Positions 12,272-43,600 of a stretch of DNA of 64,000 nucleotides are shown here, in pieces; the stretch's first letter is position 1; each line of letters begins with the position of its first letter. A program made the translations under genes and the position numbers. The DNA comes from OCS116 cluster bacterium AG-430-B22 (lineage in GTDB: Bacteria; Pseudomonadota; Alphaproteobacteria; MED-G09), in the NCBI GenBank assembly GCA_003209955.1, contig QCOD01000007.1, forward strand, positions 2,208 to 66,207, read 5' to 3'. The notes beneath the pieces are model-generated. The model saw only the letters and a list, made by a program, of their open reading frames with translations, did no database searches and was not told the origin of the DNA.

Positions 12272-12437
12272 TTTATATAACCCCGTGTTTTTCTTCTATA
12301 TATTTTAATGCTTCATCTGACATTTAATTAACCCTAACTTTTTGAACTATAACATAAATAAATAAACCTGTGACAATGTTGTTTTAATAACTTACGCTGG
12401 AAGTTAAAAGTTTAATATTTTCAACATGGAGGTGTTT

Positions 12438-24823: not shown

Positions 24824-25579
24824 TTATTTATCTTTATCTTTTATTTTAACAATTGTAGGCATATGTTTTAAATAATCTTTATCACCAATTTTTATAAGAG
24901 TATATTTTGTATTTGTGGACGGAGCAAAAAGAGGTTTATTTCTTTTCTTTAATATTGGAGCAAGAATCATTCCTGCTATAAAACCACCAATATGTGCCGA
25001 ATAAGCTACACCTGATTGCCCTTGATCTATAACATTAACTAATTGAAGACCCATCCATATTCCAAGTACTATAAAAGCAGGAACAGTTATTAATCTAACA
25101 ATAAAAACTATCCACATAAATACCCAAATTTTTGCTCTTGGGTACATAATTAAATATGCTCCTAATACACCTGCAATTGCTCCGCTAGCGCCTATCATTG
25201 GGATAGGGCTATTTGGATCATATAAAATTTGAGCAAAAACTGCTGCAAAACCACATAACAAGTAAAATATTATAAATCTAACTTTTCCAAAGCTATCCTC
25301 AATATTATCTCCAAATATCCATAAATAGACCATGTTACCTATCAGATGCGATAAATTACCATGTACAAACATTGAACTTATTATTGTAAACCATTGATTA
25401 TTAATATTATTTAATAGTTTAACCGGTGTTATCCCGAATGATCTTACAAAATTATTAAAATCTATTTGATTTAAACCCATTTGATAGAAAAATGTTAAAG
25501 AACAAAGGGTTATTAAAAGCCAGGATATATATGGCTTCATTGAAGTTGGATTATCATCTCTGAATGGAAAAAAGAACAT
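24824..25579 (-). CDS. Rhomboid family intramembrane serine protease
   Basis: HGNLSHLIGNM, catalytic GASGAIAGVLGAY and AHIGGFIAG motifs, 6-7 TM. Confidence 0.92.
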   Translation of the reverse strand: MFFFPFRDDNPTSMKPYISWLLITLCSLTFFYQMGLNQIDFNNFVRSFGITPVKLLNNINNQWFTIISSMFVHGNLSHLIGNMVYLWIFGDNIEDSFGKVRFIIFYLLCGFAAVFAQILYDPNSPIPMIGASGAIAGVLGAYLIMYPRAKIWVFMWIVFIVRLITVPAFIVLGIWMGLQLVNVIDQGQSGVAYSAHIGGFIAGMILAPILKKRNKPLFAPSTNTKYTLIKIGDKDYLKHMPTIVKIKDKDK

Positions 25580-25686
25580 TTAATAAATACCTACCTATCC
25601 ATATTTTTAGTTACATAGAGATACAAGAGTTGATTTCAAATATACAGCAAAATCAGTCATTTTATCCATTCATTATAACTTTAACT

Positions 25687-27015: not shown

Positions 27016-27024
27016 GAGATTGTT

Positions 27025-28857
27025 ATGTGTGGTATTTTTGGTGTTATAGCAAATAATGATAATGTAAAAGATCAAATTTTCGATGGACTAAGAAGACTTG
27101 AATATAGAGGATATGACTCTTCCGGTATTGCAACCATTCACAATGATCAGATCAATTGCATAAAATCACAAGGTAATTTAGACCAGCTTCAAAAAAAATT
27201 AATTAATGAAGAGTTATTAGGTAATGTTGGGATAGGTCATACCAGATGGGCTACTCATGGAGTTCCTAACGAAGCTAATGCTCATCCTCATATAACTGAT
27301 GAAGTTGCAGTTGTTCATAATGGTATTATTGAAAATTTTTCTATACTTAAAAATCAGATTTCTGAAACAGGTATAAGCTTTAAGAGTGAAACTGACACAG
27401 AAGCAATTGCACACCTTATTACTCTTTATATAAAATCAGGGATGGGAAGTTATGAGGCTATAAGAGCTACAACTGAAGATATTAAAGGATCTTATGCATT
27501 AGCAATTATATTAAGATCAGAACCAAATAAATTATACGCTGTCAGAAAAGGAAGCCCTCTTGCTATTGGATCATCAAATAGTAAAAATTATATTGGGTCA
27601 GATGGTTATTCTTTAGGTAATTATTGTAATGAAGTTACCTATTTAAAAGATGGAGACATCGCAATCATAAAAAATGACACTTTTGAGATATTTGATAATC
27701 AAAATGAATTTATAAATAGAAAATCTCAAATAATAGATAAGACCGTTACCTTAGCAGAAAAAGGTGTATTTAAGCACTTTATGTCAAAAGAAATTCATGA
27801 ACAACCGAGTGTTATTCAAGATTCTATTAGTCATTATATTAATAACGAAGACTTAACAGTGAATTTACCAAAATTCCCATTTAATATTACTAATTTAAAA
27901 AATATCACTTTAGTTGCATGTGGAAGCTCATATTATTCTGGATTAGTTGCCCGTGAATGGTTTGAGAAACTTGCTCGCGTGAAGGTTGATGTTGAAATTG
28001 CTTCTGAGTTTAGGTATCGAGAAACTCCAATGGATTCAAGCGGGCTAACTGTATTTATTTCTCAATCAGGTGAAACAGCTGATACTTTGGCAGCGTTGAA
28101 GCATTGTAAAAAACTTAATCAAAAAACTATTTCAATAGTGAATGTTCCAAATTCTTCTATGTGTAGAAACTCAGACTCATCTCTTAAAATTTATGCTGGA
28201 CCTGAGATAGGTGTTGCATCGACCAAGGCATTTACATGTCAGCTTGTTGTTTTAGCATCTTTAGCTATTCATATTGGAAGGATTAATGGCAACCTATCAG
28301 ATGATGATGAAAATAATTATGTAAAATCATTACTTGATATTCCAAGATTAATTTCTAATGTTTTGGATCAGGAAGAAGACCTTATTAAAATTGTAAAAGA
28401 ACTAAATCCAATTAAAAATGCTTTATATCTTGGAAGAGGGCAAATGTATCCTGTTGCTCTTGAGGGAGCATTAAAACTAAAGGAAATTTCTTATATTCAT
28501 GCGGAAGGTTATCCTGCTGGAGAAATGAAGCATGGTCCAATAGCTCTTTTGGAAAAGGGTCTTCCAGTAATAATTGGTGCGCCATCATTTAACTTATTTG
28601 ATAAAACAGCATCTAATCTTTATGAAGTTATAGCAAGAGATGGAAATGTTTTACTGATTACTGATCAAGAAGGTTTAATTCATCTTGGGGATACCGCAAA
28701 AAAAATAAAAGCATTTATTGTTGATGAGGCTAATATTATTACTGCACCATTTATTTATACTATTCCTTACCAACTTTTTGCATATCATACAGCTCTTCTT
28801 AAAGGGACTGATGTTGATCAACCAAGGAATTTGGCTAAATCAGTAACTGTGGAGTAG
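27025..28857 (+). CDS. glmS: Glutamine--fructose-6-phosphate aminotransferase (isomerizing)
   Basis: MCGIFG N-terminal nucleophile, two SIS domains, C-terminal AKSVTVE, 610 aa. Confidence 0.97.
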   Translation: MCGIFGVIANNDNVKDQIFDGLRRLEYRGYDSSGIATIHNDQINCIKSQGNLDQLQKKLINEELLGNVGIGHTRWATHGVPNEANAHPHITDEVAVVHNGIIENFSILKNQISETGISFKSETDTEAIAHLITLYIKSGMGSYEAIRATTEDIKGSYALAIILRSEPNKLYAVRKGSPLAIGSSNSKNYIGSDGYSLGNYCNEVTYLKDGDIAIIKNDTFEIFDNQNEFINRKSQIIDKTVTLAEKGVFKHFMSKEIHEQPSVIQDSISHYINNEDLTVNLPKFPFNITNLKNITLVACGSSYYSGLVAREWFEKLARVKVDVEIASEFRYRETPMDSSGLTVFISQSGETADTLAALKHCKKLNQKTISIVNVPNSSMCRNSDSSLKIYAGPEIGVASTKAFTCQLVVLASLAIHIGRINGNLSDDDENNYVKSLLDIPRLISNVLDQEEDLIKIVKELNPIKNALYLGRGQMYPVALEGALKLKEISYIHAEGYPAGEMKHGPIALLEKGLPVIIGAPSFNLFDKTASNLYEVIARDGNVLLITDQEGLIHLGDTAKKIKAFIVDEANIITAPFIYTIPYQLFAYHTALLKGTDVDQPRNLAKSVTVE

Positions 28858-28866
28858 AGAGAAACA

Positions 28867-29232
28867 GTGAACAAAATTGTTTATGGGGGATGTTTTTGCG
28901 GCTCAATTCGTTACAGTTTTAAATTTGATAAATATCCATCAGCAAATTGTTATTGTTCGATATGTAGGAGGACCTCGGGAGCCCCATTTGTTTCTTGGTT
29001 AGCTATTCCAGTTAATATTTTTAAATACATTAATAATAAACCTAAAAAAATAAAATCTTCTTCTCATGGAAATCGATTTTTTTGTGAAGAGTGTGGCACT
29101 CCTATAGCCTGTATTCTTGATGAAGATCCAAAAAATATTAATATTACTATTGCCAGTCTCGATAAGCCGGAAGAATTTGAACCAAGAGCTAGAATATATG
29201 TTGATGATATGCTTGATTGGCTTAAAAAATAA
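28867..29232 (+). CDS. GFA (glutathione-dependent formaldehyde-activating enzyme/CENP-V) family protein
   Basis: GGCFCGSIRY ... CYCSICRRTSGAPF ... CEECGTP Zn-Cys motifs. GTG start. Confidence 0.82.
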   Translation: MNKIVYGGCFCGSIRYSFKFDKYPSANCYCSICRRTSGAPFVSWLAIPVNIFKYINNKPKKIKSSSHGNRFFCEECGTPIACILDEDPKNINITIASLDKPEEFEPRARIYVDDMLDWLKK

Positions 29233-29376
29233 TGAGTAATGAATTTTATTTATTACTTTTGTAATTTTTATCTTTGGATTCATTTGTCTTTTGCAAATAA
29301 ATATATTTATACTCTTCTATTAAGTTTTAATATTGTATTTTTATATCAATAACTTTTCATTTATGGAGATTAAGTT

Positions 29377-29799
29377 ATGAAAAAACTTTTTTGCATTATT
29401 TTACTAATACCCACATTTGCATTTTCTATGCATCATAAATCTGATTCAATAATTTTTTATTTAGATCTTAATATATCAAGTAATTCCGTGAATGTTGAAG
29501 AGTTTCTTGAAAGCGTTGTTAAATCTGTAAATGAAACTGAACCAGGAACTATGCTTTATGAATACTATTTGTCAGAAGATAGAAAAAAGGTTTCGTTAAT
29601 TGAAATCTATAAATCAGATAACGATGCAATAACTCATATGAAAAATTTTTTAGCTGCCCCTCATAGTGGACCATTTCTTGAAACTTTTGAGATTGAAAGT
29701 TTTAAGGTTATGGGAAATTCTAGTAATGAATTAAAGAATATTCTAAATGATTTTACTAGAGATCATAGAAAATTAATTCATGGATTTAAGAGAAAATAA
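29377..29799 (+). CDS. Secreted ABM-fold protein
   Basis: Signal peptide. EPGTMLYEYYLSEDRKKVSLIEIYKSDNDAITHMKNF is an ABM pattern. Confidence 0.6.
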   Translation: MKKLFCIILLIPTFAFSMHHKSDSIIFYLDLNISSNSVNVEEFLESVVKSVNETEPGTMLYEYYLSEDRKKVSLIEIYKSDNDAITHMKNFLAAPHSGPFLETFEIESFKVMGNSSNELKNILNDFTRDHRKLIHGFKRK

Positions 29800-29857
29800 A
29801 TTCGTTATTCTTGAATTATTAATAATTATTATAGACTTATTTTTAAAGGAGAAAATT

Positions 29858-30304
29858 ATGTTATCAAAATTAGTCACAATTAAATCTTATGTTTTTACTT
29901 TTATAGTCTTAACATTTTTTACAATCAGTAACCTAAACGCTTTTGATATAAGTAAGAGTGCATCTGAAGGAAACTTTGATGTAACTTCATGGAAAGCTGG
30001 AGGTGGATATAGCGTAATTACCTCTGAAGGTTTTGTTGATGGTTATGGAAAAGTTTATCTTACCCATAAGTTTAAAGCTAATAGTGGTGAAGCGTTAACC
30101 GGTGATTTCACAGGCGGAGCAAGAGCAATTAGTAAAGATGGAAGTATGGCTTTTGCAAGTCTTCAAGGAATTTGGAAGCGTGAAGGAAAAACCTTAACTA
30201 TACATACATTAGATTCTCTTACTGATGGTACTGCTAATTATGCTAAAGGCACATTTGATCTTTATGAAGGCACACTTAAATTCGATGTTTTTGCAATTGA
30301 ATAA
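29858..30304 (+). CDS. Secreted hypothetical protein (148 aa)
   Basis: AAGGAGAAAATT-ATG RBS, signal peptide. Gly/Thr-rich beta pattern. No family recognised. The track start at 29780 overlaps the upstream gene. Confidence 0.55.
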   Translation: MLSKLVTIKSYVFTFIVLTFFTISNLNAFDISKSASEGNFDVTSWKAGGGYSVITSEGFVDGYGKVYLTHKFKANSGEALTGDFTGGARAISKDGSMAFASLQGIWKREGKTLTIHTLDSLTDGTANYAKGTFDLYEGTLKFDVFAIE

Positions 30305-30325
30305 TTAGAATTTTAGGAGAAAATT

Positions 30326-30715
30326 ATGTTTAGTCATGTAATGGTTGGAACGAACGATATAGAAGAAACTAAAATCTTTTATGATAAATTATTAGGAGTT
30401 TTAGGAGCTTCACCAGGAGTTCTTTCACCAAACCTAACTGGTCAGAAGAGATATTTTTATGCACATGATAATTCTATGTTTGTTATAACTGAGCCTATTG
30501 ATGGAAAGGAAGCAACCACTGGAAATGGTTTAACAATAGCTTTTAATGTTAATAGTGAAGAAGAAGGCGATCTATGGCATCAAACAGGAATTGAAAATGG
30601 TGGAACAACTATTGAAGAACCGCCTGGCGTTAGAGATTATGGTGAGATGAAAATATATCTTGCATATTTGAGAGATCCTTCAGGTAATAAACTTTGCGCA
30701 ATTAAGAGAATGTAA
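30326..30715 (+). CDS. VOC (glyoxalase/bleomycin resistance/dioxygenase) family protein
   Basis: MFSHVMVGTNDIEETKIFYDKLLG and LRDPSGNKL patterns, 129 aa. Confidence 0.8.
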   Translation: MFSHVMVGTNDIEETKIFYDKLLGVLGASPGVLSPNLTGQKRYFYAHDNSMFVITEPIDGKEATTGNGLTIAFNVNSEEEGDLWHQTGIENGGTTIEEPPGVRDYGEMKIYLAYLRDPSGNKLCAIKRM

Positions 30716-31659
30716 TGTTTACAAGGTATTTTCTCTTAGCAGTATTTTCACTTAGTTTTATTTCTACTTATGCTGATGATTGCCAATACTCTAAATGGGG
30801 AAAAGATGATGAAATTGGGTCTGCAAATTATGTAAATCCTGATCAAGTCTTAATGGCTTCTAAGCTTATTAAAAAAGGTAAAACTCAAAGTTTGGGTATA
30901 GTTATAGAGCCTGGAATGCCTGCCTATCCGCCAAGATATGTTGAATTACAAGTTGTTCAACCAGGTCAACAACATGGTTATGATACAGTAAAGACCTTTA
31001 ATTGGCCTGCAACAGTAAATGACGATCTTGTTCAAATGTGGCTCGGTGTCGGGCCTCAGCTTGATGGGTTTGGTCATATGGGTGAGAAGGGTGTTTTTTA
31101 TAATTGTAATGATGCGTCTGAAGTAACAGACATAACAGGGATGAAGAAACTTGGAACTGAAAAGATACCACCTTTAGTTGGACGAGGAGTCCTATTGGAT
31201 ATGACTAAACATTTCAATGTCGAATATATGCAACTAGGCCAACCAATAACTACTGATGATATTAAATTAGCCGCAAAATCTCAAAACATTAAATTTCAAA
31301 AAGGGGATGTTATATTATTCTATACTGGATGGACTGATAAAATGTTAAAAAGTGATCCTGACTTATGGAATTCTGGAGAACCTGGAATTACTAATGATGC
31401 AGCAAAATATTTAAGCTCACTAAACCCTATGGCTGTAGGTGCAGATACATGGGGAGTTGAAGTTGTTCCAGCTATAGAAGGGGACAAGTTATTTTATGGC
31501 CATATTACGCTCCTAAAAGAAAATGGTATCCTTATATTAGAAACAATGAATACAGGTGAACTCGTTCGTGAGAATGTAGATGAATTTATGTTTGTATTAG
31601 GTCAACCAAAAATTAAAGGTACCGTTCAAATGATTATCAATCCTGTCGCGTTGTGGTAG
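30715..31659 (+). CDS. Putative cyclase family protein, secreted (paralog of 12438..13430)
   Basis: KWGKDDEIGSANYV, QLDGFGHMG and GADTWG motifs. Signal peptide. TAATG overlap with the VOC gene. Confidence 0.8.
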   Translation: MFTRYFLLAVFSLSFISTYADDCQYSKWGKDDEIGSANYVNPDQVLMASKLIKKGKTQSLGIVIEPGMPAYPPRYVELQVVQPGQQHGYDTVKTFNWPATVNDDLVQMWLGVGPQLDGFGHMGEKGVFYNCNDASEVTDITGMKKLGTEKIPPLVGRGVLLDMTKHFNVEYMQLGQPITTDDIKLAAKSQNIKFQKGDVILFYTGWTDKMLKSDPDLWNSGEPGITNDAAKYLSSLNPMAVGADTWGVEVVPAIEGDKLFYGHITLLKENGILILETMNTGELVRENVDEFMFVLGQPKIKGTVQMIINPVALW

Positions 31660-31665
31660 TATTTG

Positions 31666-32622
31666 ATGATTAATCCAAAATTTTATCCATTTTTTGTTGC
31701 TTTACTTTTATCTGCTCTTTTTTTCATTATTTATATATTCCTTGGTAATCGAGGCATTATTTTGTCTCTTGAGCCAAATGAGAGTATTGGTGATATTTCA
31801 AGATGGTGTGAAAGAGTTAGTGGAAGTATTTTTAGAGAGCCATCTAATGCATTAAGCAATATAGGCTTCATTATACTCGGACTTTATATGTTCTGGGTTT
31901 TAGGAAAGGATATAAAATCTGATACTTCAAATCAATTTACTGGATTAAACTCTATTTCAATATTATATGCTGGTGCAGCAATATTTCTTGGTCCAGGTTC
32001 ATTATTGATGCATGGAACGCATACAGAATGGGGTGAGTGGGCCGATAATTTAAGTATGATAATGTATATTATTATTCCATGGCTTTTAAACATCAAAGAA
32101 ATGGGTCGTTGGTCACTTAAGACATTTTTTTCATCATATTTCCTAATTGTTTTTGTTTATGCATTAACAAGATGGTTATTTGGATCAGAGCTAGGTATTA
32201 ACCTTGATTTATTTGGTCTATCTATCGGTTTATGGGTCATTTCTGAGACGCTTTTTCGATTTTGGTCTCCATTATTTAGATGGATTTCAGGTTTTATTGG
32301 TTTTTTTGTAGCGGCAATATTTGGAATATTTCCAGCAGAAATATTCTTAAATTTTAATGAATTTTGGTGGGTCATTCTATTTTGGATTCCAGCTATATTT
32401 TCTCATCATCCACCACGCGTAAAGAGAGATTACTCACCTTGGTTTTACTTGGGAATGGGATCTTATGTTCTCGCTTTTGTTATATGGCTTCAAGGTTATC
32501 CAAATACACCATTTTGTTATCCTGACTCTATTATTCAACCACATGCAATTTGGCATTTGATGACAGCGTTTTCTACTTGGTGTTTCTTTAAGTTTTTTAG
32601 AACTGAAAAGAAATTTATATAA
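31666..32622 (+). CDS. Alkaline ceramidase (ACER/phytoceramidase)-like 7-TM membrane hydrolase
   Basis: RWCE...REPSNALSNIGFI parallels the eukaryotic WCE...E..N..SN motif. Later HGTHTEW and HAIWHLMTA histidine motifs. Confidence 0.5.
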   Translation: MINPKFYPFFVALLLSALFFIIYIFLGNRGIILSLEPNESIGDISRWCERVSGSIFREPSNALSNIGFIILGLYMFWVLGKDIKSDTSNQFTGLNSISILYAGAAIFLGPGSLLMHGTHTEWGEWADNLSMIMYIIIPWLLNIKEMGRWSLKTFFSSYFLIVFVYALTRWLFGSELGINLDLFGLSIGLWVISETLFRFWSPLFRWISGFIGFFVAAIFGIFPAEIFLNFNEFWWVILFWIPAIFSHHPPRVKRDYSPWFYLGMGSYVLAFVIWLQGYPNTPFCYPDSIIQPHAIWHLMTAFSTWCFFKFFRTEKKFI

Positions 32623-32696
32623 ATTAAAAAAACCCTTTCAATATTAAGATTAATTTGCTGTAAATAAACTTCGTAAATTTAATTCCGGGAGTAATT

Positions 32697-33392
32697 ATGA
32701 AAAATTTATTATTTATTTTAGTATTATTAGTTTCAGTTAATACACTTGCTGATGGTCATGTAAAACCTGAAGAGGGTGCATTTACATCTTTATATGTAGC
32801 AGCTGCGGATGTAGATAAGTATACAGACTTTCTTAGAGAGAATAGTGATGCCTTCAAATCTATAGGTTCAAGTGATGCTGGAGTTTGTATAACTAGATCT
32901 GGAAATCAATATCCTGGACAAATGATGGTTTGGAATGCTTTCCCAAGTGTAGAAGCAGCTATGATTGGTTCTTTAAAGTATGATCCTAATACAGCAACTG
33001 GTCAAATAACAAAAATGAGAGAATTAAAACATTCTACAATATGGAAATCATTAAAATCATTTCGTTTAGAACCTGGACACGAAGTTGTAGCAAGATTTAA
33101 AATCCAACAAAATAATATTAATGCTTTTGTTGAGATTATGGCAAAATTAGAGAAAGAAGTTCAGAAAAACGGTCATCCTAATTTTTTTAATGGTGTTTTT
33201 GTGTCTATAGCTGGCGGTAAAGAATCGCAAACAATAAAAGTTAGAAATATTACTAATAGTGCATCTGACCAAGGTAAAATCGTTGATGAGTATTTTTCAG
33301 GTAAATATAAATTATTTGATGAGGCTGTAGCACTTACAGAAGGTTTTGTTGATGAACAAATACAAGTTTGTGAACAAATTTATAAACAATAA
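32697..33392 (+). CDS. Secreted hypothetical protein (231 aa)
   Basis: Signal peptide. Appears to consist of two ~100-aa alpha+beta halves. No family recognised. Confidence 0.55.
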   Translation: MKNLLFILVLLVSVNTLADGHVKPEEGAFTSLYVAAADVDKYTDFLRENSDAFKSIGSSDAGVCITRSGNQYPGQMMVWNAFPSVEAAMIGSLKYDPNTATGQITKMRELKHSTIWKSLKSFRLEPGHEVVARFKIQQNNINAFVEIMAKLEKEVQKNGHPNFFNGVFVSIAGGKESQTIKVRNITNSASDQGKIVDEYFSGKYKLFDEAVALTEGFVDEQIQVCEQIYKQ

Positions 33393-33406
33393 AATAGGTT
33401 CTTATT

Positions 33407-34861
33407 ATGAGTGAAGTCGGTATTTCATCTATAGTTGGTTATATACCAAAATTAAGATTATTAAGAAAAAGTGTTGCAGAGTCTAATGCTTGGCTTGCTC
33501 CAAACCTTATGGGAAAGGGCAAAGGAACAAGATCTATGGCTAATTGGGATGAAGATAGTGTAACTATGTCTGTTGAAGCTGCTAGAAGATTGCTTGGTCC
33601 AGAAGACGATAGATCACATGTTGATAATGTATTTTTAGCCTCCACTACAATGCCATTTGCAGATAGGTTAAATTCAGGAATAGTTAGAGCAGCACTAACA
33701 TTGGAAGAATCAACGCAATGTACTGATATATCATCAACTTTGAAATGCGGTACGACAGCCTTAATAAATGCTATTTCATCAGTTCAATCAGGTAAAAGCG
33801 ATTATTCTCTTGTTTTATCTTCTGATAAAAGAAAGTCTAGAGTTGGAAGCTCACAGGAACTTGATTTTGGTGATGCGTCAGCTGCTATTGGAATAAGTAA
33901 TAAAGATATTATTGCAAAAGTATTGGCCACATCATCAGTTTCTGTTGATTTTGTTGATCATTTTCGAGCTCCAAATGAAGAATTTGATTATAATTGGGAA
34001 GAAAGGTGGATCAGAGATGAGGGTTATTTAAAAATTATTCCGAAACTAATTAATAATTTACTTAAAGAAAATGATATAAACCCTTCAGAAATAAAGAAAT
34101 TTATACTCCCATGTATTTTTCCTAGAGTACCACAAACAATTTCTAAGATATGTGGTATAGACCCTGAAAATGTTGTTGATAATTTAGCTTTAAATGTTGG
34201 CGATTCCGGATCAGCTCATCCTTTATTAATGTTAACTCATGTTCTAGAGAATGCTGAACCAAATGAAAAAATACTAGTTTGTTCGTTTGGAGGAGGTGGG
34301 GATGCAATTCTTCTTGAAACTACTAAATTAATTAGCAAATTTAAAAATGAAGAGTCTATTTCAGTGTTATTAGACAACGGCATTGAAGAGACTAACTATA
34401 TGAAATATTTAACTTTTAATGATCTAGTTAAATGGGAAAAAGGTATGCGTGGAGAAATTGATAGAAAAACTGCCCTAACAACTCTTTATAGGCATAATGA
34501 TGCTATTATAGGTCTTGTTGGAGGTAAATGCTCTAAAACAGGAACAATACAATTTCCTGCATCAAGAGTGTCTGTAAGCCCCAATAGCCCTGATATCGAT
34601 ACACAAGAACCTTATAAACTTGCAGAAAAGAGAGCAAACATACTTTCTTGGTCTGCAGATTACCTTTCATTTTCAGTAAATCCACCTAATTATTATGGAA
34701 TAGTATCTTTTGAAGAGGGTGGAAGGATTATGATGGATTTCACAGATGTTGGAGAAGGTGAAATAGAATCAGGCAAAGATGTTAAAATGGTTTTCCGAAT
34801 TAAGGCTATTGATGAAGCAAGAGGCTTCACAAGATATTTTTGGAAAGCTGTACCTATTTAA
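33407..34861 (+). CDS. Fusion protein: thiolase-fold condensing enzyme (HMG-CoA synthase/KAS III/PhlA-like) with a C-terminal DUF35 OB-fold domain
   Basis: 484 aa. The N-terminal ~340 aa have a Cys in a condensing-enzyme context (STLKCGTTALINA). The C-terminal ~120 aa match the DUF35 pattern (GGKCSKTGTIQFP ... YYGIVSFEEGGRIM) with a degenerate Zn ribbon. Confidence 0.65.
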   Translation: MSEVGISSIVGYIPKLRLLRKSVAESNAWLAPNLMGKGKGTRSMANWDEDSVTMSVEAARRLLGPEDDRSHVDNVFLASTTMPFADRLNSGIVRAALTLEESTQCTDISSTLKCGTTALINAISSVQSGKSDYSLVLSSDKRKSRVGSSQELDFGDASAAIGISNKDIIAKVLATSSVSVDFVDHFRAPNEEFDYNWEERWIRDEGYLKIIPKLINNLLKENDINPSEIKKFILPCIFPRVPQTISKICGIDPENVVDNLALNVGDSGSAHPLLMLTHVLENAEPNEKILVCSFGGGGDAILLETTKLISKFKNEESISVLLDNGIEETNYMKYLTFNDLVKWEKGMRGEIDRKTALTTLYRHNDAIIGLVGGKCSKTGTIQFPASRVSVSPNSPDIDTQEPYKLAEKRANILSWSADYLSFSVNPPNYYGIVSFEEGGRIMMDFTDVGEGEIESGKDVKMVFRIKAIDEARGFTRYFWKAVPI

Positions 34862-34903
34862 AGTGAATTATGATAATAAAAATTAAACGAAACGGAGAAT
34901 TTT

Positions 34904-36100
34904 ATGGCTTCAGGAATTAAGGATAAGGTTGCAATCTTAGGAATGGGTTGTTCAAAATTTGGTGAAAGATGGGATACTAGCCCAGATGATCTTATGGTCG
35001 AGGCTTATATTGAAGCTCTTGATGATGCTGGAATAGAACCAAATCAACTTGATGCTGCATGGTTTTCTCATCATATAGATGATATTGGTGCCGGTAAGGG
35101 TGGTACACCTATGTCAATAGCTTTAAGGCTTCCAAATATTTCTGTAACTAGAGTTGAAAACTATTGTGCATCTGGGTCTGAGGCTTTTAGAGGCGCTGTT
35201 TATGCAGTTGCAGCTGGTGCTGCTGATATAGCAATTGCGCTTGGTATGGAAAAATTAAAAGATACAGGTTACGGAGGCTTACCAGCAACTAATTATGGTA
35301 CTTTTGGCCCACAAATTGGACCATCAGGGTCTGCACCTGGTAATTTTGCTCAATTGGCTTCAGCTTATAGAGCTAAACATGGTGTTTCAGCTGAAGATAT
35401 GAAAAGGGCTATAGCTCATGTATCTGTAAAAAGTCATGCTAATGGAGCAAAAAACCCAAAAGCCCATCTTCAAAAGGAAGTTACTGAAGAACAAGTATTA
35501 AACGCACCAATGATTGCAGAGCCTCTTGGACTTTTTGATTGTTGTGGTGTTTCAGATGGAGCTGCTGCAGCGATTGTAACAACTCCAGAAATAGCTAAAA
35601 GTCTTGGTAAAGATAACCTTATTAGTGTTAAGGCTCTTCAATTATCAGTTTCTAATGGTCTAGAATCTCATCACAATACTTGGGATGGTTCTTATTTTCA
35701 TACAGTTAGAATAGCTGCAAAAAAGGCCTATGCTGAGGCTGGCATTACAAAACCAAGAGAAGAAGTATCAATGATGGAAGTACATGATTGTTTCTCTGTT
35801 ACTGAATTGGTGACTATGGAAGACCTTTTCATATCTGAAGAAGGACAGGCTGTAAAAGATGTTATGGATGGCTTTTATGACGCTGATGGCCCTGTTCCTT
35901 GTCAAATAGACGGTGGATTAAAATGTTTTGGACATCCTATAGGTGCTTCAGGTTTAAGAATGCTCTATGAAATGTATCTTCAGCTTCAAGGTAGAGCAGA
36001 TAAGAGACAGTTAAAGAATCCTTCAATAGGATTGACTCATAATCTTGGCGGGCAACCAGCTAACAATGTTTGTTCAGTAGCAATTATAGGATCTTTATAA
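34904..36100 (+). CDS. SCP-x/lipid-transfer-type thiolase (acetyl-CoA C-acyltransferase-like)
   Basis: 398 aa. VENYCASGSEAF active-site Cys region, HDCFS, and C-terminal GHPIGASG ... NLGG. Confidence 0.85.
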   Translation: MASGIKDKVAILGMGCSKFGERWDTSPDDLMVEAYIEALDDAGIEPNQLDAAWFSHHIDDIGAGKGGTPMSIALRLPNISVTRVENYCASGSEAFRGAVYAVAAGAADIAIALGMEKLKDTGYGGLPATNYGTFGPQIGPSGSAPGNFAQLASAYRAKHGVSAEDMKRAIAHVSVKSHANGAKNPKAHLQKEVTEEQVLNAPMIAEPLGLFDCCGVSDGAAAAIVTTPEIAKSLGKDNLISVKALQLSVSNGLESHHNTWDGSYFHTVRIAAKKAYAEAGITKPREEVSMMEVHDCFSVTELVTMEDLFISEEGQAVKDVMDGFYDADGPVPCQIDGGLKCFGHPIGASGLRMLYEMYLQLQGRADKRQLKNPSIGLTHNLGGQPANNVCSVAIIGSL

Positions 36101-36595
36101 CTAATCCTGCGAATACCCATCATTAATTGCTTTGAGGTAACCTGAATAATTAGGTTGATCAATAGATAGTTTTGCCATTGTTGTTCTAATCAAATGATCC
36201 TTTAATTCATTATCATCTCTATCTAGCTCTTTATCACTTATTCTTTTACATAAGATTTTATTAAGATCTTTAATATCGCCTTTTTCATTTAATAATTTTT
36301 CTAGTCTAATAATTTCCTTTTCTTCATAACCATTTATTAGATTTATTTCTCTTTGGATAATTTGAAGAGAATTCCTAGCTACAAAAGCATAAAACCTATT
36401 ATGACCTGTAAGATTTGAAATTAAATCATCGTTAATAAATTGTACTATTTCGTTAATTTTAGAATCATCAATTTCATTAATATTTTTTAGAGTATCAATA
36501 TGTTTTTTTAAATTTCGAAAAACTTCTAAATTTAAATCCTCTAAAAAACTTCTAATTGAAATTAATAATTCTTTTCTAGTTGGCTCGCTTCTCAT
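36101..36595 (-). CDS. Helical hypothetical protein translationally coupled to the upstream phosphotransferase
   Basis: 164 aa. ATGA overlap with 36592..37584. Its stop abuts the thiolase stop with no gap. Confidence 0.55.
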   Translation of the reverse strand: MRSEPTRKELLISIRSFLEDLNLEVFRNLKKHIDTLKNINEIDDSKINEIVQFINDDLISNLTGHNRFYAFVARNSLQIIQREINLINGYEEKEIIRLEKLLNEKGDIKDLNKILCKRISDKELDRDDNELKDHLIRTTMAKLSIDQPNYSGYLKAINDGYSQD

Positions 36596-37584
36596 GACAC
36601 TATTAACTTCCTAATTAAATCTATTTCTGTTTCTGAAGACCTTCTTCCTATAGATGCTCTATCAATAGATTTGTCATATCCAGATCTATAGATTTCAATC
36701 ATATTTAAACACATAATTCCCCATTTAAGCGTTCCAAGTACTTCCCAAAATTTTAATCTTTCTTTATCAAGTTTTTTACCTAAAACTTTTTCGTAAGATA
36801 AATACATATCTTCTCTCTTTCCAAAACCTCCAACAGGAAGTTCTATCTTATTAAATCTCCAACTATTAACACAAATCCAGGATAAATCTTCATAAGGATC
36901 ACCAAGATGAAATAATTCCCAATCCAAAACTCCAGGAATTAAATTATCATTAGATATTATTAAATTTCCATTTCTGAAGTCTCCATGTATTAATTTTTTA
37001 GTAATTTTTTTTGGAATATTGTCCTTAAGCCAACTAATTGTATATTCAAATACAGGTATATCTTGATTATGGGTTCTATAAACTTCTTCATATTTTAATA
37101 ATTCATCTTCTGCTTCTGATGTTTTAATATTATCAAATTTTGATATTGGAATTTTATGGATATTTGCAATTATTTCACCACACTTTTTTGCAAGTCTTGG
37201 TCTAATTATTTTAAATTTATCACTATTAACTATTCTATTACCTAATGTTTCTCCCTCAATGAAATCCATAAAGAAACCTTTTCCAATATTGTTATTATTA
37301 ATAACTTTGATAATTTTAGGAACAGGAACATTATAATCATTAGCAATATTCATTACTTTTGCTTCATCTGCTATATCTACAAAATTATTACTTTCTTCAT
37401 CTTTAAGATTTCCTCCAGGCGTTCTTCTAAAAACTATTTTCTTTTTATTTTCTTTTGTATTTAGAGTTATCTTCCAAGACTCATTGCTAGAACCTCCTGA
37501 AAGTCTTGAGATATTTGCAATAGATATAAAATCAGGAATAAAATCAGTTATAATTTCACTTAATATTTTTTGTAAGTTTTCCAT
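36592..37584 (-). CDS. Phosphotransferase (APH/choline-kinase-like) family protein
   Basis: HGDFRNGNLII catalytic loop and DWE motif, 330 aa. Confidence 0.82.
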   Translation of the reverse strand: MENLQKILSEIITDFIPDFISIANISRLSGGSSNESWKITLNTKENKKKIVFRRTPGGNLKDEESNNFVDIADEAKVMNIANDYNVPVPKIIKVINNNNIGKGFFMDFIEGETLGNRIVNSDKFKIIRPRLAKKCGEIIANIHKIPISKFDNIKTSEAEDELLKYEEVYRTHNQDIPVFEYTISWLKDNIPKKITKKLIHGDFRNGNLIISNDNLIPGVLDWELFHLGDPYEDLSWICVNSWRFNKIELPVGGFGKREDMYLSYEKVLGKKLDKERLKFWEVLGTLKWGIMCLNMIEIYRSGYDKSIDRASIGRRSSETEIDLIRKLIVS

Positions 37585-37641
37585 TATGAAAAAATTTTAA
37601 ATTACTATTATCAATAATTATTTTTATGCTACAAGGTAAAT

Positions 37642-38271
37642 ATGTCTAATGATACACAACAAAAAATACCTTTAATCAGGAGATTGCGAACTTATTTCTT
37701 AACTGGTCTGGTTGTCGCTGCCCCAATTGCTATAACTATATGGGTAGCTATCTGGTTTATTGAAAGTGTTGATTCCTGGTTTTCACCATTTATACCAAAC
37801 GCATTACAAGACTCTCCTTATAGTTTACCGGGACTTGGAGTTATTGCTTCATTAATTATTTTAACCGGTCTTGGTGCTTTAACAGCTAACATTTTTGGAA
37901 AAACAATTCTTCAATTTGGAGAAAGTCTTCTAGACAGAGTTCCAGTTATAAGAAATATATATGGAGCTCTTAAACAAATATTTGAAACTGTTGCCACACA
38001 ATCGAATAAGAATTTTAAGGGTGTGGTCTTATTTGAGTATCCTAGAAAAGATATATGGGCGCTTGGTTTTGTTACTACTGACGCTAAAGGTGAAATAGCA
38101 GATAAAAAAGGTGACGATCTCCTGTGTATTTTTGCTCCAACTACACCTAATCCAACATCTGGTTATTTACTATTTGTGCCACGTGAAGATACTATTCAAA
38201 TGGATATGACCGTTGAGGAGGCTGCCAAATTGATTATATCTGCTGGAATTGTTGTGCCAGATCAGGATTAA
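37642..38271 (+). CDS. DUF502 domain membrane protein
   Basis: LRTYFLTGLVVAAPIAITIWV, PGLGVI..L and PTTPNPTSGYLLFVP motifs typical of DUF502. Confidence 0.8.
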   Translation: MSNDTQQKIPLIRRLRTYFLTGLVVAAPIAITIWVAIWFIESVDSWFSPFIPNALQDSPYSLPGLGVIASLIILTGLGALTANIFGKTILQFGESLLDRVPVIRNIYGALKQIFETVATQSNKNFKGVVLFEYPRKDIWALGFVTTDAKGEIADKKGDDLLCIFAPTTPNPTSGYLLFVPREDTIQMDMTVEEAAKLIISAGIVVPDQD

Positions 38272-40337
38272 CCTGCATCAAGATATTTTAAAGCCTCATC
38301 TTTACTAAATAATTGAAGCAATAATCTTATGTTCTCGTTTAATCCATTATTTTCTACAATTTCTTTAGCATTTTTATTTGCTATATCAAGTAAATCAGTA
38401 TCTTCATTTAGATTAGCCATTTTAAAAATATGAAAACCTGATTGCCTAGTACCTAATATTTCTCCAGACCCTCTGAGTAATAAATCTTGTTCCGCTATAA
38501 TAAATCCGTCATTTGTTTTACGTAATGTCTCAATTCTTTTTTTTGCATTATCCCCCAAAGGGGTTTGGTATAATAATAAACAACTAGATTGATCTGATCC
38601 ACGACCAACTCTTCCTCTTAATTGATGAAGCTGTGATAAGCCAAATCTTTCGGCATGTTCAATTATCATTACTGTTGCTTCAGGTATATCAATTCCAACT
38701 TCAATAACTGTTGTAGAAACAAGAATTTTTGTATCTCCATACTTAAATTCATCCATTATTTGTTCCCTTTCATCAGCTTTCATTTTTCCATGTATAAGAA
38801 GTACATTATCTGAATAATGTTTTTTTAAAGATTTATACCTATCTTGTGCAGCAGCCAAATCTATTTTTTCGGATTCTTCTATAAGAGGGCACACCCAATA
38901 TATCTTTTTATTTTCATTAATTGTTTTTTCTAGAGATATAATTGTTTCATTTAATTTGATTAATGGTTTAGCTGCAGTTTTAATATTTTGTCTTCCAATA
39001 GGTTTTTCTGTAATTTTTGAAACTGACATTGATCCATATGTTGTTAACTCAAGAGTTCTTGGAATTGGAGTTGCAGTCATTAACAATACATGGGGAGGTA
39101 ATTTATTATTTTTTGAGGTTAATAAAAGTCTTTGATGAACTCCAAATTTATGTTGCTCATCAATTGCAACAAATCCAAGATCAAGAAATTTTACCTTTTC
39201 TTGAAACAAAGAATGAGTTCCAATTATGATATCGATATTACCAGTTTCTATATCTCTATATATTTTTTCTTTTTCTTTTTGTGATGTTTTACCTGTTAAG
39301 ACATCAATTTTATAATTTTCTGATAATAATTTTTTAAAGGACTCATAATGCTGATTTGCTAATATCTCTGTTGGCACCATTAATGCTGCTTGCTTCTTAT
39401 CGTTTACAGCTATCAAAATACTTACAAGTGCAACTAATGTTTTTCCAGAACCTACATCACCTTGAAGAAGTCTTAACATTCTGTAGGGTTTTTCCATATC
39501 CATAGCAATTTCTTCAATACATTCTTTTTGTGAATTTGTAAGATTATATGGCAATGATTCAATAAAGCTTTTAATTTGTGCTTCATTTCTTTTTATTGGT
39601 GCTCCTTTTTGATAATTTAATTCTTTAGAGATTAGTTGCATTGAAATTTGATGCGCTAAAAGCTCATCATAAATTATTCTTTGTTTTGATAAGTTTTGCG
39701 ATGTAAGATCTTTTTCATTATTTGGATTATGAGCATCAAAAATTGCCTGATTAAAGGATGGCCAATTCATATCTTCAAGAAATGTACTATTATGCCATTC
39801 ATTGATATTAGGCATATTTTTTAAAATTCTTTCTATATTTCCTCTAACAACTTTATTAGTTAATCCTTGTGTAAGAGAATATGTAGCCTCAATATTTGGT
39901 ATTGTATCCGTTGCTTCTGCGCTAACTATATACTCAGGGTGTGTAATTTGCTTAGTATCTTTATAAAAATCAATTTTTCCACTAATTATAATTTCTTTGT
40001 TTAAGGGAAGTAGTTTTTCTAAATAATCCTTTCGAGAATTAAACCAAACCAAATTTATTTTACCAGTATTATCTTCGCACATTACTCTATATGGAATATT
40101 TCTTCTGAATGATGGAGTGTGTTTTATTACTTTGCATTGAATTGAAGCTACTCTACCAACTTCAGCGTCATTTATATTTGGTCTATAGGATCTATCTATA
40201 AATCCATTTGGAAGATGCCAAATTAGATCAATAACATAATTTCCAACCAAATATTTTAAACGTGATTTAAGTTTTGGTCCTATTCCTTTAAGGGTATCTA
40301 ATGGGCGAAATAACTGATATAGAGACTCTGAATTCAT
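38268..40337 (-). CDS. recG: ATP-dependent DNA helicase RecG
   Basis: 689 aa. Wedge domain followed by helicase motifs (GDVGSGKT, DEQHKFG, TATPIPRT, QLRGRVGRG). Confidence 0.96.
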   Translation of the reverse strand: MNSESLYQLFRPLDTLKGIGPKLKSRLKYLVGNYVIDLIWHLPNGFIDRSYRPNINDAEVGRVASIQCKVIKHTPSFRRNIPYRVMCEDNTGKINLVWFNSRKDYLEKLLPLNKEIIISGKIDFYKDTKQITHPEYIVSAEATDTIPNIEATYSLTQGLTNKVVRGNIERILKNMPNINEWHNSTFLEDMNWPSFNQAIFDAHNPNNEKDLTSQNLSKQRIIYDELLAHQISMQLISKELNYQKGAPIKRNEAQIKSFIESLPYNLTNSQKECIEEIAMDMEKPYRMLRLLQGDVGSGKTLVALVSILIAVNDKKQAALMVPTEILANQHYESFKKLLSENYKIDVLTGKTSQKEKEKIYRDIETGNIDIIIGTHSLFQEKVKFLDLGFVAIDEQHKFGVHQRLLLTSKNNKLPPHVLLMTATPIPRTLELTTYGSMSVSKITEKPIGRQNIKTAAKPLIKLNETIISLEKTINENKKIYWVCPLIEESEKIDLAAAQDRYKSLKKHYSDNVLLIHGKMKADEREQIMDEFKYGDTKILVSTTVIEVGIDIPEATVMIIEHAERFGLSQLHQLRGRVGRGSDQSSCLLLYQTPLGDNAKKRIETLRKTNDGFIIAEQDLLLRGSGEILGTRQSGFHIFKMANLNEDTDLLDIANKNAKEIVENNGLNENIRLLLQLFSKDEALKYLDAG

Positions 40338-40364
40338 AATTTAAATTACTAGTATAAATGAAAA

Positions 40365-40601
40365 ATGGAAATTTATTTGAAAAAATTATTATTTAAAGCA
40401 TCTCATAGAGGCACAAAAGAGATGGATATAATTCTTGGTAATTTTGCTAAGAAACATTTAGATTCTATGAATAGTGATAATTTAAAGTTATTTGAAGAGC
40501 TTCTTGAGGTTCCAGATCCCGATCTTTACAAATGGTTTACTTCTGATGATATCAGTATTCCTGAAAAATTTCTTAATCTCGTAAAAGAGATATCTAAATA
40601 A
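40365..40601 (+). CDS. sdhE: Succinate dehydrogenase flavinylation factor SdhE (SDHAF2/DUF339)
   Basis: 78 aa. RGTKEMDIILGNF ... DPDLYKW pattern. Lies between recG and mfd. Confidence 0.8.
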   Translation: MEIYLKKLLFKASHRGTKEMDIILGNFAKKHLDSMNSDNLKLFEELLEVPDPDLYKWFTSDDISIPEKFLNLVKEISK

Positions 40602-40608
40602 AACATTT

Positions 40609-43600
40609 ATGATGTTAGATGATTTCATAAAAGAATTTTCTAAAGATAAAGAAAAAAAGAAAAAAGTTAGTGACTTAGGAAATATTCCCCATGGCTCTGA
40701 AGCATTAATTATTTCAAAAATTTCTGAATATATTAAAAAAGATATTTTATTCATTTGTGAGAATAAAAAAAAATATAATCAAATTAAGGATGTGTTAAAT
40801 TTTCTTGAAATTAAAAACGTATATTTTTTTCCTGAATATGACACTAATACTTACGATAGAATATCTCCAAATAAGAACATTACATCAGAAAGAGTAAAAA
40901 CCTTAATTGAATTAAAGTTTTCTCAAGGAAATAAAATTATATTAACAACAGCAAAAGCATCATCACAATTTATTGCAGAAAAACAATCGAGTTATTACAA
41001 AAATCTTAACTTAGAAACAGGAAATGAATACGATTTAGTTGAAATTAAATCTTTTCTTGTTGAACATGGTTACACTAATACATCTTATGTTCGCGAAGTA
41101 GGGGAGTTTGCCATAAGAGGAGGTATTGTTGATTTTTATCCTTTTAATTATTCATCTCCAGTAAGATTAGATTTTTTTGGTAATAAATTAGATTTTATAA
41201 AAACCTTTGATGCCAATACACAGCTTTCTCACGATCAAAATTTAGATGATATTAATATTTATCCTTGCGATGAAATTATTTTAAATAATGAATTAGTTAA
41301 TAATTTTAGGAGTAATTTCAATCTAGAATTTGGCTCTGAAAGTAAAAACTCTAAACTATACGAAAGTGTATCAAGTAAAATAACTTATCCTGGGATAGAG
41401 AGTTGGTTACCATTTTTTTATAATAGCAAATCTACTATTATTGATTACTGCAATGATCCAGTAATTATTTTAGATAATAGTATATTTGAAATCATAAATG
41501 ATTTTGAAGAAACCTTAATTGCACAATATAAAACAAGAATAGAATTTGACTCTGAGAAAGAAAATACAGAAAAATATTATTCACTAAGTCCAGATCAATT
41601 ATTTTTAGGTAAAGAAGAGTATATAAATATTGTAAATAATCACAAAAAATTACAATTTTCTTCATTAAAAAACCCTAAAGGAGTTAACTTAAATGCAAAT
41701 AATATTCAGGGATTTTACTCATCAGATAAACTAAATAAAATTGATTATCAAAGCCTAAAAAATACTATCAATAAAAATATTAATGATAACAATAGTGTAT
41801 TTCTTGCTTGTTCAAGCGAGGGATCAAGATTAAGACTTTCTAAAATTTTCAAAAATCAAAATATAGATTCATATCTTTTTGATAAATTTTCAGATTTACA
41901 AAATATAAATAAAAAGGGAATAGGGATTTGCGTTCTTAATCTTTCCAATGGCTTTTTTCTTGAAAAATCAATGTTCATTTCAGAACAGGATATTTTTGGT
42001 GAGAAATTTTATAGATCTAGAAAAGTTGAAAATAAGAATTTTCTTAAGGATCTATCATCAATTAATCCAGGTGACTTTATTATTCATGTTGATCATGGAT
42101 TAGGTAAATTTATAAATTTAACAAACCTTAAAATTGAAAATTCTTATCATGAATGTTTAATGCTCGAATATAGAAATAATGATCGTTTATATTTACCTGT
42201 TGAAAATCTTGAAATGCTCTCAAAATATAATTCTGATAATGAAAACATAATTTTAGATAAACTTGGAAGCAATGTTTGGAAAATTAAAACCGAGAAAATA
42301 AAAAAAGATATTATGCATTTAGCAAAAGATTTAATCGATGTTGCAGCTAAAAGAAAATTAGCAAACGCAAGTAAATATGATATCAAAAACGAGTTTTATG
42401 ATGATTTTTGCTCACGATTTTCTTACGAAGAAACAGATGATCAATTAACCTCAATTGATAATGTTCTTGAGGATTTATCTAAAGGCACCCCTATGGATAG
42501 GCTAGTTTGTGGGGATGTTGGGTTTGGTAAGACAGAAGTTGCTATTAGAGCATCATTTGTTGTAGCGTTAGAGGGTAAACAAGTTGGAATTCTATCTCCA
42601 ACAACATTATTAGCTAGACAACATTTTGAAACATTTAAAAAAAGATTTTCTGGTTTGCCAATTAATATTGTTGAATTATCAAGATTAACAAAGAATAAGA
42701 AGGAAGTTATTGAAAAAATAAATGATGGTTTTGCTGATATTGTTATAGGTACACATGCTTTATTATCTGACAAAATAGAGTTTAAAAACTTGGGATTATT
42801 AATAGTCGATGAAGAACAGCACTTTGGAGTTAAGCATAAGGAGAAGTTAAAAAAACTAAAATCAGATATTCATGTTCTTACTTTAACTGCAACACCAATC
42901 CCAAGAACAATGCAATTAGCAATGACTGGTGTAAAAGATCTATCAATAATAGCATCCCCTCCAATAGATAGAAGATCGATAGAAACATTTATTTTTAAAA
43001 GAGACTCAATCGTTATTAAAGAAGCTCTATTAAATGAAAAGAAAAGAGGAGGGCAAAGTTTTTATATTGTTCCAAGGATCAAAGATATTTCAACAATAGA
43101 AGAATTTATAAAAGAAAAAATTCCTGAAATTAATTATGTTGTTGCTCACGGACAAATGTCATCAACAAATTTAGAAAATAGAATGCATGATTTTTATGAA
43201 GGAAATTATGATGTTTTAATTTCCACAAGCATTATTGAATCTGGATTAGACCTACCGAACGCAAATACAATAATTATTCATAAGGCTAATTTATTCGGTC
43301 TATCACAATTATATCAAATAAGAGGAAGAGTTGGACGATCAAATATTAGAGCTTATGCATATATTACATATGAAAATGATTTTCAACTTGGAAGCAATGC
43401 TCTTAAAAGATTAGAAGCAATTCAATCACTGAATTCTCTTGGAGCAGGCTTTAATTTAGCTAGTTACGATCTTGATATAAGGGGCTCAGGGAATATTCTT
43501 GGAGAACAACAATCAGGACACATAAAGGAAGTCGGTGTTGAGCTATATCAAGATATGCTTGAAGAGACGATATCCTTACTTAAAAATGATAATACTAAAT

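Follow-up and report, generated by a model that had tools for sequence, protein, structure and literature searches.

Two adjacent genes on contig QCOD01000007.1 of the alphaproteobacterium OCS116 cluster bacterium AG-430-B22 raise the question of what a protein carrying the database name "HMG-CoA synthase (family)" does beside a thiolase. The genes lie at positions 33407 to 36100 of the 64,000-nucleotide stretch of this contig that we analyzed (hereafter the window). Gene 1 (33407..34861, + strand, 484 aa) joins a thiolase-fold domain resembling 3-hydroxy-3-methylglutaryl-CoA (HMG-CoA) synthase (HMGS or HMGCS) and PhlA to a DUF35 domain; gene 2 (34904..36100, + strand, 398 aa) encodes a thiolase of the SCP2/archaeal type. 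The evidence makes it probable that gene 2 is an active thiolase and gene 1 its non-catalytic partner, in which the two accessory subunits of archaeal and PhlACB assemblies have been merged. The initial annotation, made from the sequence alone, had described two open reading frames (ORFs) separated by 42 nt, and both ORF calling and inspection of the sequence agree with that layout. The spacer (34862..34903, + strand) contains a GGAG Shine-Dalgarno sequence, a putative ribosome-binding site, at 34894-34897. Gene 1 and gene 2 are probably co-transcribed, because no terminator was predicted in this spacer, in a promoter and terminator scan that overall returned fewer sites than shuffled sequence did.

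Gene 2 retains the catalytic motifs of a thiolase

Gene 2 matched the NCBIfam model NF004810 (PRK06157 family) with 710.8 bits against a cut-off of 403, over profile positions 1-397 of 400. Its closest sequence matches in the PDB were archaeal acetoacetyl-CoA thiolases (ACATs; 7yvy_A, 1e-59; 6esq_A, 2e-54), with BbsB (7pxp_C) at 2.4e-42 and PhlC at only 5.5e-21. The profile and the archaeal thiolase and BbsB matches are in line with the earlier description of gene 2 as an SCP-x-type thiolase. All catalytic motifs are retained, namely C88 within NYCASGS, the HDCF motif at 294-297 (H294 and C296), and GHP at 343-345 (H344). HDCF is found in 64 of the 68 partner thiolases of related loci, its His being residue 294 in 44, and the more general HDxF is present in archaeal ACATs and missing from PhlC and MucB (PMC12960953). 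Judged by these motifs, and jointly with a non-catalytic role for gene 1, gene 2 is likely an active SCP2/archaeal-type thiolase and the catalytic subunit of the pair.

An aldolase of the Ltp2 or Sal type was also considered for gene 2. The steroid side-chain aldolase Ltp2 has a thiolase fold in which the Cys nucleophile was given up for retro-aldol chemistry. The Sal-type aldolase, too, combines a thiolase fold lacking the Cys nucleophile with retro-aldol chemistry (PMC12329534). Gene 2 scored far below the cut-offs of the Ltp-type NCBIfam models, and the lipid-transfer protein 6ok1 matched it at only 4.1e-19. This candidate was rejected because both C88 and C296 are kept.

The HMGS-like domain of gene 1 lacks the synthase tetrad

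The first 340 residues of gene 1 (33407..34426, + strand) form the HMGS/PhlA-like domain. The Pfam model ACP_syn_III_C (PF08541) matched residues 219-297 with 31.2 bits (cut-off 26.6), and the best PDB sequence match was PhlA (5m3k_A, 1.3e-26), with archaeal HMGCS (6esq_I) at 2e-16 and further PhlA and MucA chains also retrieved; the PhlA and HMGCS matches span residues 1-335. The AlphaFold model of gene 1 had a predicted template-modelling score (pTM) of 0.84, and its predicted local distance difference test values (pLDDT, as means of 10-residue blocks) were about 80-97 over most of residues 1-340, dipping to 55-63 at residues 181-200. PhlA, archaeal HMGCS and MucA were the best Foldseek matches of this model (target-normalised TM 0.81-0.85). 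Homology to the archaeal thiolase/HMGCS/DUF35 complex and to PhlA/PhlC/PhlB, proposed in the initial annotation, is thus borne out by both sequence and structure matches.

The catalytic tetrad of HMGCS consists of E82, C114, H238 and N270 in Methanothermococcus thermolithotrophicus numbering, and in PhlA/MucA-type proteins it is replaced as E82C, C114G, H238Q and N270D (PMC12960953). Aligning gene 1 to 6esq_I and PhlA with HMMER placed T80, L112, P235 and D266 at these four positions, with both N-terminal motifs free of gaps, and the same register emerged independently when HMGCS, PhlA and 29 family members were aligned with MAFFT L-INS-i. The nucleophile motif reads FACKAGT in HMGCS, FAGKSGT in PhlA and STLKCGT in gene 1, K-x-G-T being common to the three. 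Across a 124-sequence family alignment, the Glu column holds Thr in 105 members, the nucleophile column L, Q, R, M, A or P, the His column P, Y, A, S, N or D, and the Asn column is variable (D, N, E, H, Y or F). Homologues collected at the species level gave the same picture, and Glu, Cys and His were absent from the residues listed at the first three tetrad positions in all three family alignments.

The initial annotation had pointed to the Cys in STLKCGTTAL as part of a condensing enzyme. This Cys does exist (C114 of gene 1), but it lies two residues past the nucleophile position, where it aligns with A116 of HMGCS and a Ser of PhlA, and its column in the 124-sequence alignment holds Ala in 80 members, Ser in 19, Cys in 14 and Gly in 8. 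We therefore rejected C114 as a nucleophile of gene 1, being both out of register and not conserved. Among residues at least 93% conserved in the family there was no candidate nucleophile besides the zinc-ribbon residue C375, and outside the ribbon no Cys, Ser or His nucleophile is conserved. Near-invariant polar residues across the family are D48, E49, D50, T53, D107, R200, R362, R464 and K480, and the blocks FDYNWEERWIRDEG and KTALTTLYR are nearly invariant among closer relatives (at least 55% identity). Both the DED motif and the DHFR-like block are shared with HMGCS and PhlA, where they take up homologous, structural positions.

Gene 1 also stayed under the cut-off of every NCBIfam HMGCS model (175.7 against 244 bits for the archaeal NF003274/PRK04262, 101.6 against 353 for TIGR00748, and 54 against 360 for TIGR01835). 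Since the tetrad is replaced and these cut-offs are not reached, gene 1 does not qualify as an HMG-CoA synthase. As far as sequence can tell, its HMGS-like domain is catalytically dead as an HMGCS and the protein is predicted to be unable to make HMG-CoA, so that, by the refuting condition the initial annotation had itself set (an N-terminal domain without a condensing enzyme's catalytic residues), the idea of gene 1 as a condensing enzyme has to be given up. Its database name thus wrongly implies mevalonate or HMG-CoA metabolism in abundant marine Alphaproteobacteria.

A fused DUF35 domain with a degenerate zinc ribbon

Downstream of the HMGS-like domain, gene 1 continues into a linker with the remnant of the DUF35 rubredoxin-like zinc ribbon (34427..34597, + strand, residues 341-397) and an OB-fold domain (34598..34858, + strand, residues 398-484). 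The OB_ChsH2_C/DUF35 model (PF01796) matched residues 406-464 with 31.7 bits against a cut-off of 27.1, and the C-terminal 124 residues (361-484) matched archaeal DUF35 (6esq_E) at 1e-3. With PF08541 and PF01796 both over cut-off in a single 484-aa ORF, the fusion of DUF35 to an HMGS-like protein described earlier holds. In the AlphaFold model the OB fold consists of beta strands with moderate confidence (block-mean pLDDT of about 52-86), and residues 343-397, comprising the linker and former ribbon, have pLDDT below 50.

The zinc-ribbon model zf-ChsH2 (PF12172) remained below threshold in gene 1 (16.2 against 23.2 bits), and the four ribbon positions are occupied by C375, T378, S389 and S394, so that a single Cys is left of four, as had been noted before. 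In the family alignment, Cys occupies these positions in 117, 100, 98 and 100 of the 124 members. Among 82 species sequences, 50 have the complete C-C-C-C pattern and 32 (about 39%) keep the first Cys only, in a stereotyped C-T-S-x arrangement; the latter group includes Parvibaculum, Caulobacter, Bradyrhizobium, Variovorax and Comamonas. The degenerate ribbon is therefore a lineage trait and not a peculiarity of gene 1, and its recurrence implies that the partnership can do without the DUF35 zinc site.

Cys375 (34529-34531) is itself kept in 117 of the 124 members, even where the other three ribbon Cys are replaced.

Distribution, pairing and selection

A phmmer search of 1.84 billion cluster representatives returned 456 proteins matching gene 1 at E <1e-30, and most of the best 150 were full-length fusions of about 460-505 aa, with identity down to about 30%. 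In a scan of one genome per species, queried with 12 closer gene 1-type sequences, relatives were present in at least 562 genomes. Alphaproteobacteria with such relatives include Parvibaculum, Caulobacter, Bradyrhizobium, Reyranella and Rhizomicrobium; others belong to Betaproteobacteria (Variovorax, Comamonas, Ideonella), Gammaproteobacteria and SAR324, and more distant family members occur in Sphingomonas and in metagenome-assembled genomes (MAGs) of a deltaproteobacterium and of Clostridia.

The two genes travel together. Using tblastn with defined queries, we found that 68 of the 71 loci with sufficient downstream DNA have a gene 2 homologue downstream of the gene 1 homologue, on the same strand and within 3 kb; it is directly adjacent in 54, and this pairing is therefore not due to chance. 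The thiolase is the better conserved of the two, with a mean identity to the window protein of 78% versus 52% for its partner and higher conservation in 65 of the 65 loci compared; across the roughly 65 closest species genomes recovered (Alpha-, Beta- and Gammaproteobacteria) its identity was 67-98%. Relative to the closest, 90%-identical relative (locus L004; dS about 1.25), gene 2 had a dN/dS of 0.019 and gene 1 one of 0.05, values that indicate strong purifying selection on both. A protein identical to that of gene 2 was encoded on 877 contigs, of which several came from marine (Tara) data.

Relation to known complexes

The closest described counterpart is a Pseudomonas fluorescens complex. 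A recent survey (PMC12960953, Nat Commun, January 2026) reported 1,030 bacterial loci with co-localised HMGS, ACAT and DUF35, of which 1,001 lack secondary-metabolite machinery. From this latter class the authors characterized PfACAT/HMGS-DUF35, in which HMGS and DUF35 are fused and the tetrad is missing, with PfACAT keeping the Cys (CxS), HDxF and GHx motifs (PMC12960953). The complex cleaves acetoacetyl-CoA thiolytically, an activity nearly abolished by H294Y, does not convert acetyl-CoA into either HMG-CoA or acetoacetyl-CoA, and behaves unlike the acyltransferases PpATase and SmaATase; its authors regarded it as an evolutionary intermediate without a pathway (PMC12960953). Earlier, fusions of DUF35 to thiolase-superfamily, SDR (short-chain dehydrogenase/reductase), SCP2 and hot-dog domains had been listed in 2010, and operons in which one thiolase-superfamily protein is active and one inactive had been noted (PMC2954200).

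The window pair shares with the P. fluorescens complex the two adjacent genes, the fused HMGS-DUF35, the missing tetrad and the lack of polyketide synthase (PKS) or nonribosomal peptide synthetase (NRPS) genes nearby, and gene 2 carries the same catalytic Cys (C88-A-S), HDxF and GHx motifs as PfACAT, the HDxF His being residue 294 in both. By every feature tested, and judged from the published description, the pair appears to belong to the bacterial ACAT/HMGS-DUF35 class. It differs from that description in coming from a marine alphaproteobacterium with a GC content of about 30%, and its own ribbon has one Cys and is zinc-less; the likeness to the P. fluorescens complex is one of architecture and motifs. 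Because that system is already published, the two-gene fused architecture is not new. The window pair adds a member to this class, in a pairing that is widespread in Proteobacteria; what goes beyond the earlier study would be the wide occurrence of the zinc-less ribbon, the strong purifying selection on the pseudoenzyme partner and the case made below for a maintained catabolic role.

More distant systems share parts of this organization. The archaeal thiolase/HMGCS/DUF35 complex has the same three modules, with an HDxF thiolase (2e-54), an HMGS-like fold (target-normalised TM 0.84-0.85) and DUF35 (1e-3), whereas in the window the HMGS module is predicted to be dead, DUF35 is part of a fusion and its zinc site is gone, and the mevalonate context is missing, so that only one of the two archaeal reactions would be possible. 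PhlA/PhlC/PhlB (PpATase) and MucABC (SmaATase; 5m3k, 9skh, 9vbo) likewise combine an inactive HMGS-like subunit, a single thiolase active site and a DUF35 scaffold. Unlike the window pair, they are encoded by three separate genes inside secondary-metabolite clusters, and PhlC and MucB have no HDxF motif and leave acetoacetyl-CoA uncleaved, whereas gene 2 keeps HDCF. The benzoylsuccinyl-CoA thiolase BbsAB (7pxp) resembles the pair in its SCP2-type HDxF thiolase (2.4e-42), in the dependence of BbsB on DUF35 and in 3-oxoacyl-CoA thiolysis; however, BbsA is a stand-alone DUF35 protein without an HMGS-like domain, and the substrate and anaerobic toluene context of BbsAB are absent from the window. 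Eukaryotic peroxisomal SCPx/MFE-2 shares SCP2-type thiolase chemistry, and the SDR and SCP2 domains to which some gene 1 relatives are fused recall the domain set of MFE-2 and SCPx. In SCPx, though, SCP2 is fused to the thiolase itself, the eukaryotic enzymes have no HMGS-like or DUF35 partner, and the window proteins have neither SDR nor SCP2 domains.

Domain fusions and neighbours in related loci

C-terminal extensions of HMGS-DUF35 in the family include SDR plus SCP2 (P0124, 911 aa, one member of whose cluster comes from a deltaproteobacterial MAG), two SCP2 domains (P0125, 722 aa) and SDR (P0168, 800 aa). A neighbourhood survey of 81 loci, in which ORFs were clustered unfiltered and then annotated with Pfam, gave as recurrent neighbours SDR (29 loci), enoyl-CoA hydratase (ECH, 15), an APH-family kinase with a DUF6285 protein (15), acyl-CoA dehydrogenase (ACAD, 13), acyl-CoA ligase (8) and family III CoA-transferase (7). 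On plasmid pVarWS11_2 of Variovorax sp. WS11 (L049, 4160-18050) the pair lies inside a same-strand gene run, in the order thioesterase, Rieske oxygenase, ECH, SDR, alpha/beta hydrolase, HMGS-DUF35, thiolase, ECH, ECH and 3-hydroxyacyl-CoA dehydrogenase; a flavin amine-oxidase-like gene is also part of this run. In one relative, a PhyH-family dioxygenase gene lies between the two genes of the pair. The SDR and SCP2 fusions and the ECH, SDR and ACAD neighbours point to beta-oxidation-type thiolysis.

The WS11 plasmid locus could also serve as a handle for finding the substrate. A lead to Andalucia godoyi proved false, the matches there being to DUF3501.

Proposed function and alternative explanations

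The most economical model would be a thiolase of the SCP2 type that requires two accessory subunits, DUF35 and a dead HMGS module, here merged in one protein. In such a complex the gene 1 protein would bind the thiolase through its DUF35 and HMGS-like surfaces, acting as a scaffold, and would probably form part of the CoA/substrate-binding chamber. Chemistry would be confined to the thiolase: Cys88 would attack the 3-keto group of a 3-ketoacyl-CoA, HDCF (His294, Cys296) and His344 would supply the oxyanion and acid-base functions, and CoA would then release acetyl-CoA or a short acyl-CoA, plus the shortened acyl-CoA. We infer that the two window proteins associate physically and that physiologically they perform the thiolytic step in a pathway of the beta-oxidation type, with branched or bulky acyl-CoAs perhaps as substrates. 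Retro-Claisen cleavage, one of three reactions put forward in the initial annotation, would thus be favored in the form of thiolysis, performed by gene 2 and not by gene 1.

The pair offers a clear example of a pseudoenzyme that strong purifying selection has kept as partner of a presumably active enzyme. Its breadth (at least 562 species genomes) and its persistence in a low-GC marine genome suggest a real catabolic role for a complex that has so far been assayed with acetoacetyl-CoA only. Conservation, abundance and domain fusions argue for a maintained catabolic role as opposed to a functionless evolutionary intermediate, and it is because the pair is conserved here and in relatives that we depart on this point from the authors of the P. 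fluorescens study (PMC12960953). A more specific proposal, which we put forward tentatively and rate as somewhat less than even, is that the pair is a maintained core beta-oxidation-type thiolase module of Proteobacteria and not an idle intermediate. It would be a counterpart of SCPx/MFE-2 for branched or bulky acyl-CoAs, with the dead HMGS module as an obligatory structural subunit and the ribbon dispensable. This proposal is based on the conservation of the thiolase, the low dN/dS, the retention of the pair in a marine genome of about 30% GC, the 877 contigs, the SDR/SCP2 fusions, and the operons with ECH, SDR, ACAD and 3-hydroxyacyl-CoA dehydrogenase.

Several points weigh against this account of the pair. 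No beta-oxidation gene adjoins it in the window, the nearest ECH gene being 8 kb off, at 44055-44864, and in the clade of closest relatives the neighbourhood is a housekeeping one (glmU, glmS, recG, mfd). The cleavage of acetoacetyl-CoA by the P. fluorescens complex in vitro does not identify the natural substrate (PMC12960953), and orthology to that pair would rest on architecture, motifs and the His294 numbering, not on direct alignment; no named P. fluorescens protein was among the best 120 matches of each of two gene 1-type homology searches. The dN/dS of 0.05 is, moreover, also compatible with an undiscovered activity of gene 1.

Such a second catalytic or regulatory activity, exerted through residues outside the tetrad, would explain the strong conservation of gene 1, to which the two near-invariant blocks, the near-invariant polar residues and the retention of C375 even where the ribbon is lost could be added. 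We nevertheless regard it as improbable, given that the DED motif and the DHFR-like block sit at structural positions homologous to those of HMGCS and PhlA, that the family has no conserved Cys, Ser or His nucleophile outside the ribbon, and that no activity is known for PhlA and MucA, which are the closest relatives with solved structures. A slightly better but still low chance goes to a biosynthetic Claisen module, in which thiolase and DUF35 would join an acyl-CoA to acetyl-CoA by condensation, an (R)-specific SDR being recruited to pull the reaction forward, as in PhaA/PhaB or in the archaeal fatty-acid-synthase complex of ketothiolase, DUF35, reductase and dehydratase. Thiolase reactions are reversible, SDR is found fused to family members and is the commonest neighbour (29 of 81 loci), and the archaeal ketothiolase/DUF35 assembly does use a recruited SDR reductase and a recruited MaoC dehydratase in synthesis (bioRxiv 10.1101/2024.07.05.601840). 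However, neither an enoyl-CoA reductase nor a MaoC dehydratase was found among the recurrent neighbours. The biosynthetic direction is less likely than thiolysis because the P. fluorescens complex yields no acetoacetyl-CoA from acetyl-CoA in vitro (PMC12960953) and because the neighbours (ACAD, acyl-CoA ligases, thioesterase, NAD-type 3-hydroxyacyl-CoA dehydrogenase, Rieske oxygenase) are catabolic.

The two remaining reactions named in the initial annotation fare worse. Friedel-Crafts-type transfer of an acetyl group onto a small-molecule acceptor, as by PhlACB or MucABC, gains some appeal from PhlA being the best sequence match of gene 1 (1.3e-26), from the structural closeness of PhlA and MucA and from the E-C-H-N tetrad being missing in all three. 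On the thiolase side the picture is different, as gene 2 is far nearer to archaeal ACAT (1e-59) than to PhlC (5.5e-21) and keeps the HDCF motif that PhlC and MucB lack. A Pfam scan of nearly all window ORFs of at least 150 aa found no PKS or NRPS gene, the locus lies in conserved core synteny, and the P. fluorescens complex behaves unlike PpATase and SmaATase (PMC12960953). With HDxF retained and a biosynthetic cluster lacking, acyltransferase activity of this type is thus strongly disfavored. Least credible, to the point of being negligible, is a true thiolase/HMG-CoA synthase channelling complex that would feed a mevalonate or other HMG-CoA-dependent pathway. Homology to the archaeal complex at the level of the fold speaks for it, but gene 1 has other residues at all four catalytic positions of HMGCS, which removes HMG-CoA-type condensation from consideration, all NCBIfam HMGCS models stayed below cut-off (175.7 vs 244, 101.6 vs 353 and 54 vs 360), and the P. 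fluorescens complex makes no HMG-CoA (PMC12960953). Nor did the same Pfam scan find any mevalonate-pathway gene in the window, as the initial annotation had already noted.

Genomic context of the pair in the window

The window has a GC content of about 30%, and its Pfam annotation comprises housekeeping, transport and small-molecule genes only. A core synteny, spanning 25564-44864 of the window and seen also in loci L001, L084 and L086, runs glmU, glmS ... HMGS-DUF35, thiolase, (DUF6285, APH), DUF502, recG, (sdh5), mfd, with ECH following mfd in the window version. The conservation of this order among Alphaproteobacteria indicates that the gene pair belongs to the core genome and not to an island. 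Since the neighbourhood is of a housekeeping kind both here and in closer alphaproteobacterial relatives, the local context says little about the substrate.

Convergent with gene 2 lie genes for an APH-family kinase (330 aa) and a DUF6285 protein (164 aa), which overlap by 4 nt (36101-37584, - strand). The two are near the gene 1/thiolase pair in 15 of the 81 loci surveyed, and also in L001 and L084. No mention of DUF6285 was found in the literature searched. We presume that this kinase pair may act as a hydroxyacyl-CoA kinase, in the manner of LvaA/LvaB.

On the other side, a 231-aa ORF with a signal-peptide-like N terminus (32697-33392, + strand) ends 14 nt before gene 1. It had no Pfam or NCBIfam match and no tblastn match in 83 related loci, including the 90%-identical relative L004, and was rejected as a component of the system because it is absent from all 83 loci. 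This ORF lies between gene 1 and a gene for a ceramidase-family (PF05875) membrane protein (31663-32622, + strand). Of the three closest relatives, two have a PF05875 gene directly upstream of their gene 1 homologue (L005, 9039-9908; L006, 2283-3128), and in L004 it is found about 5.8 kb upstream. The window also contains two paralogous "putative cyclase" (PF04199) genes, at 30715-31659 and 12426-13430 (+ strand), as well as the alpha subunit of a Rieske ring-hydroxylating oxygenase at 56580-57800 (- strand) and an SDR at 58697-59434 (- strand).

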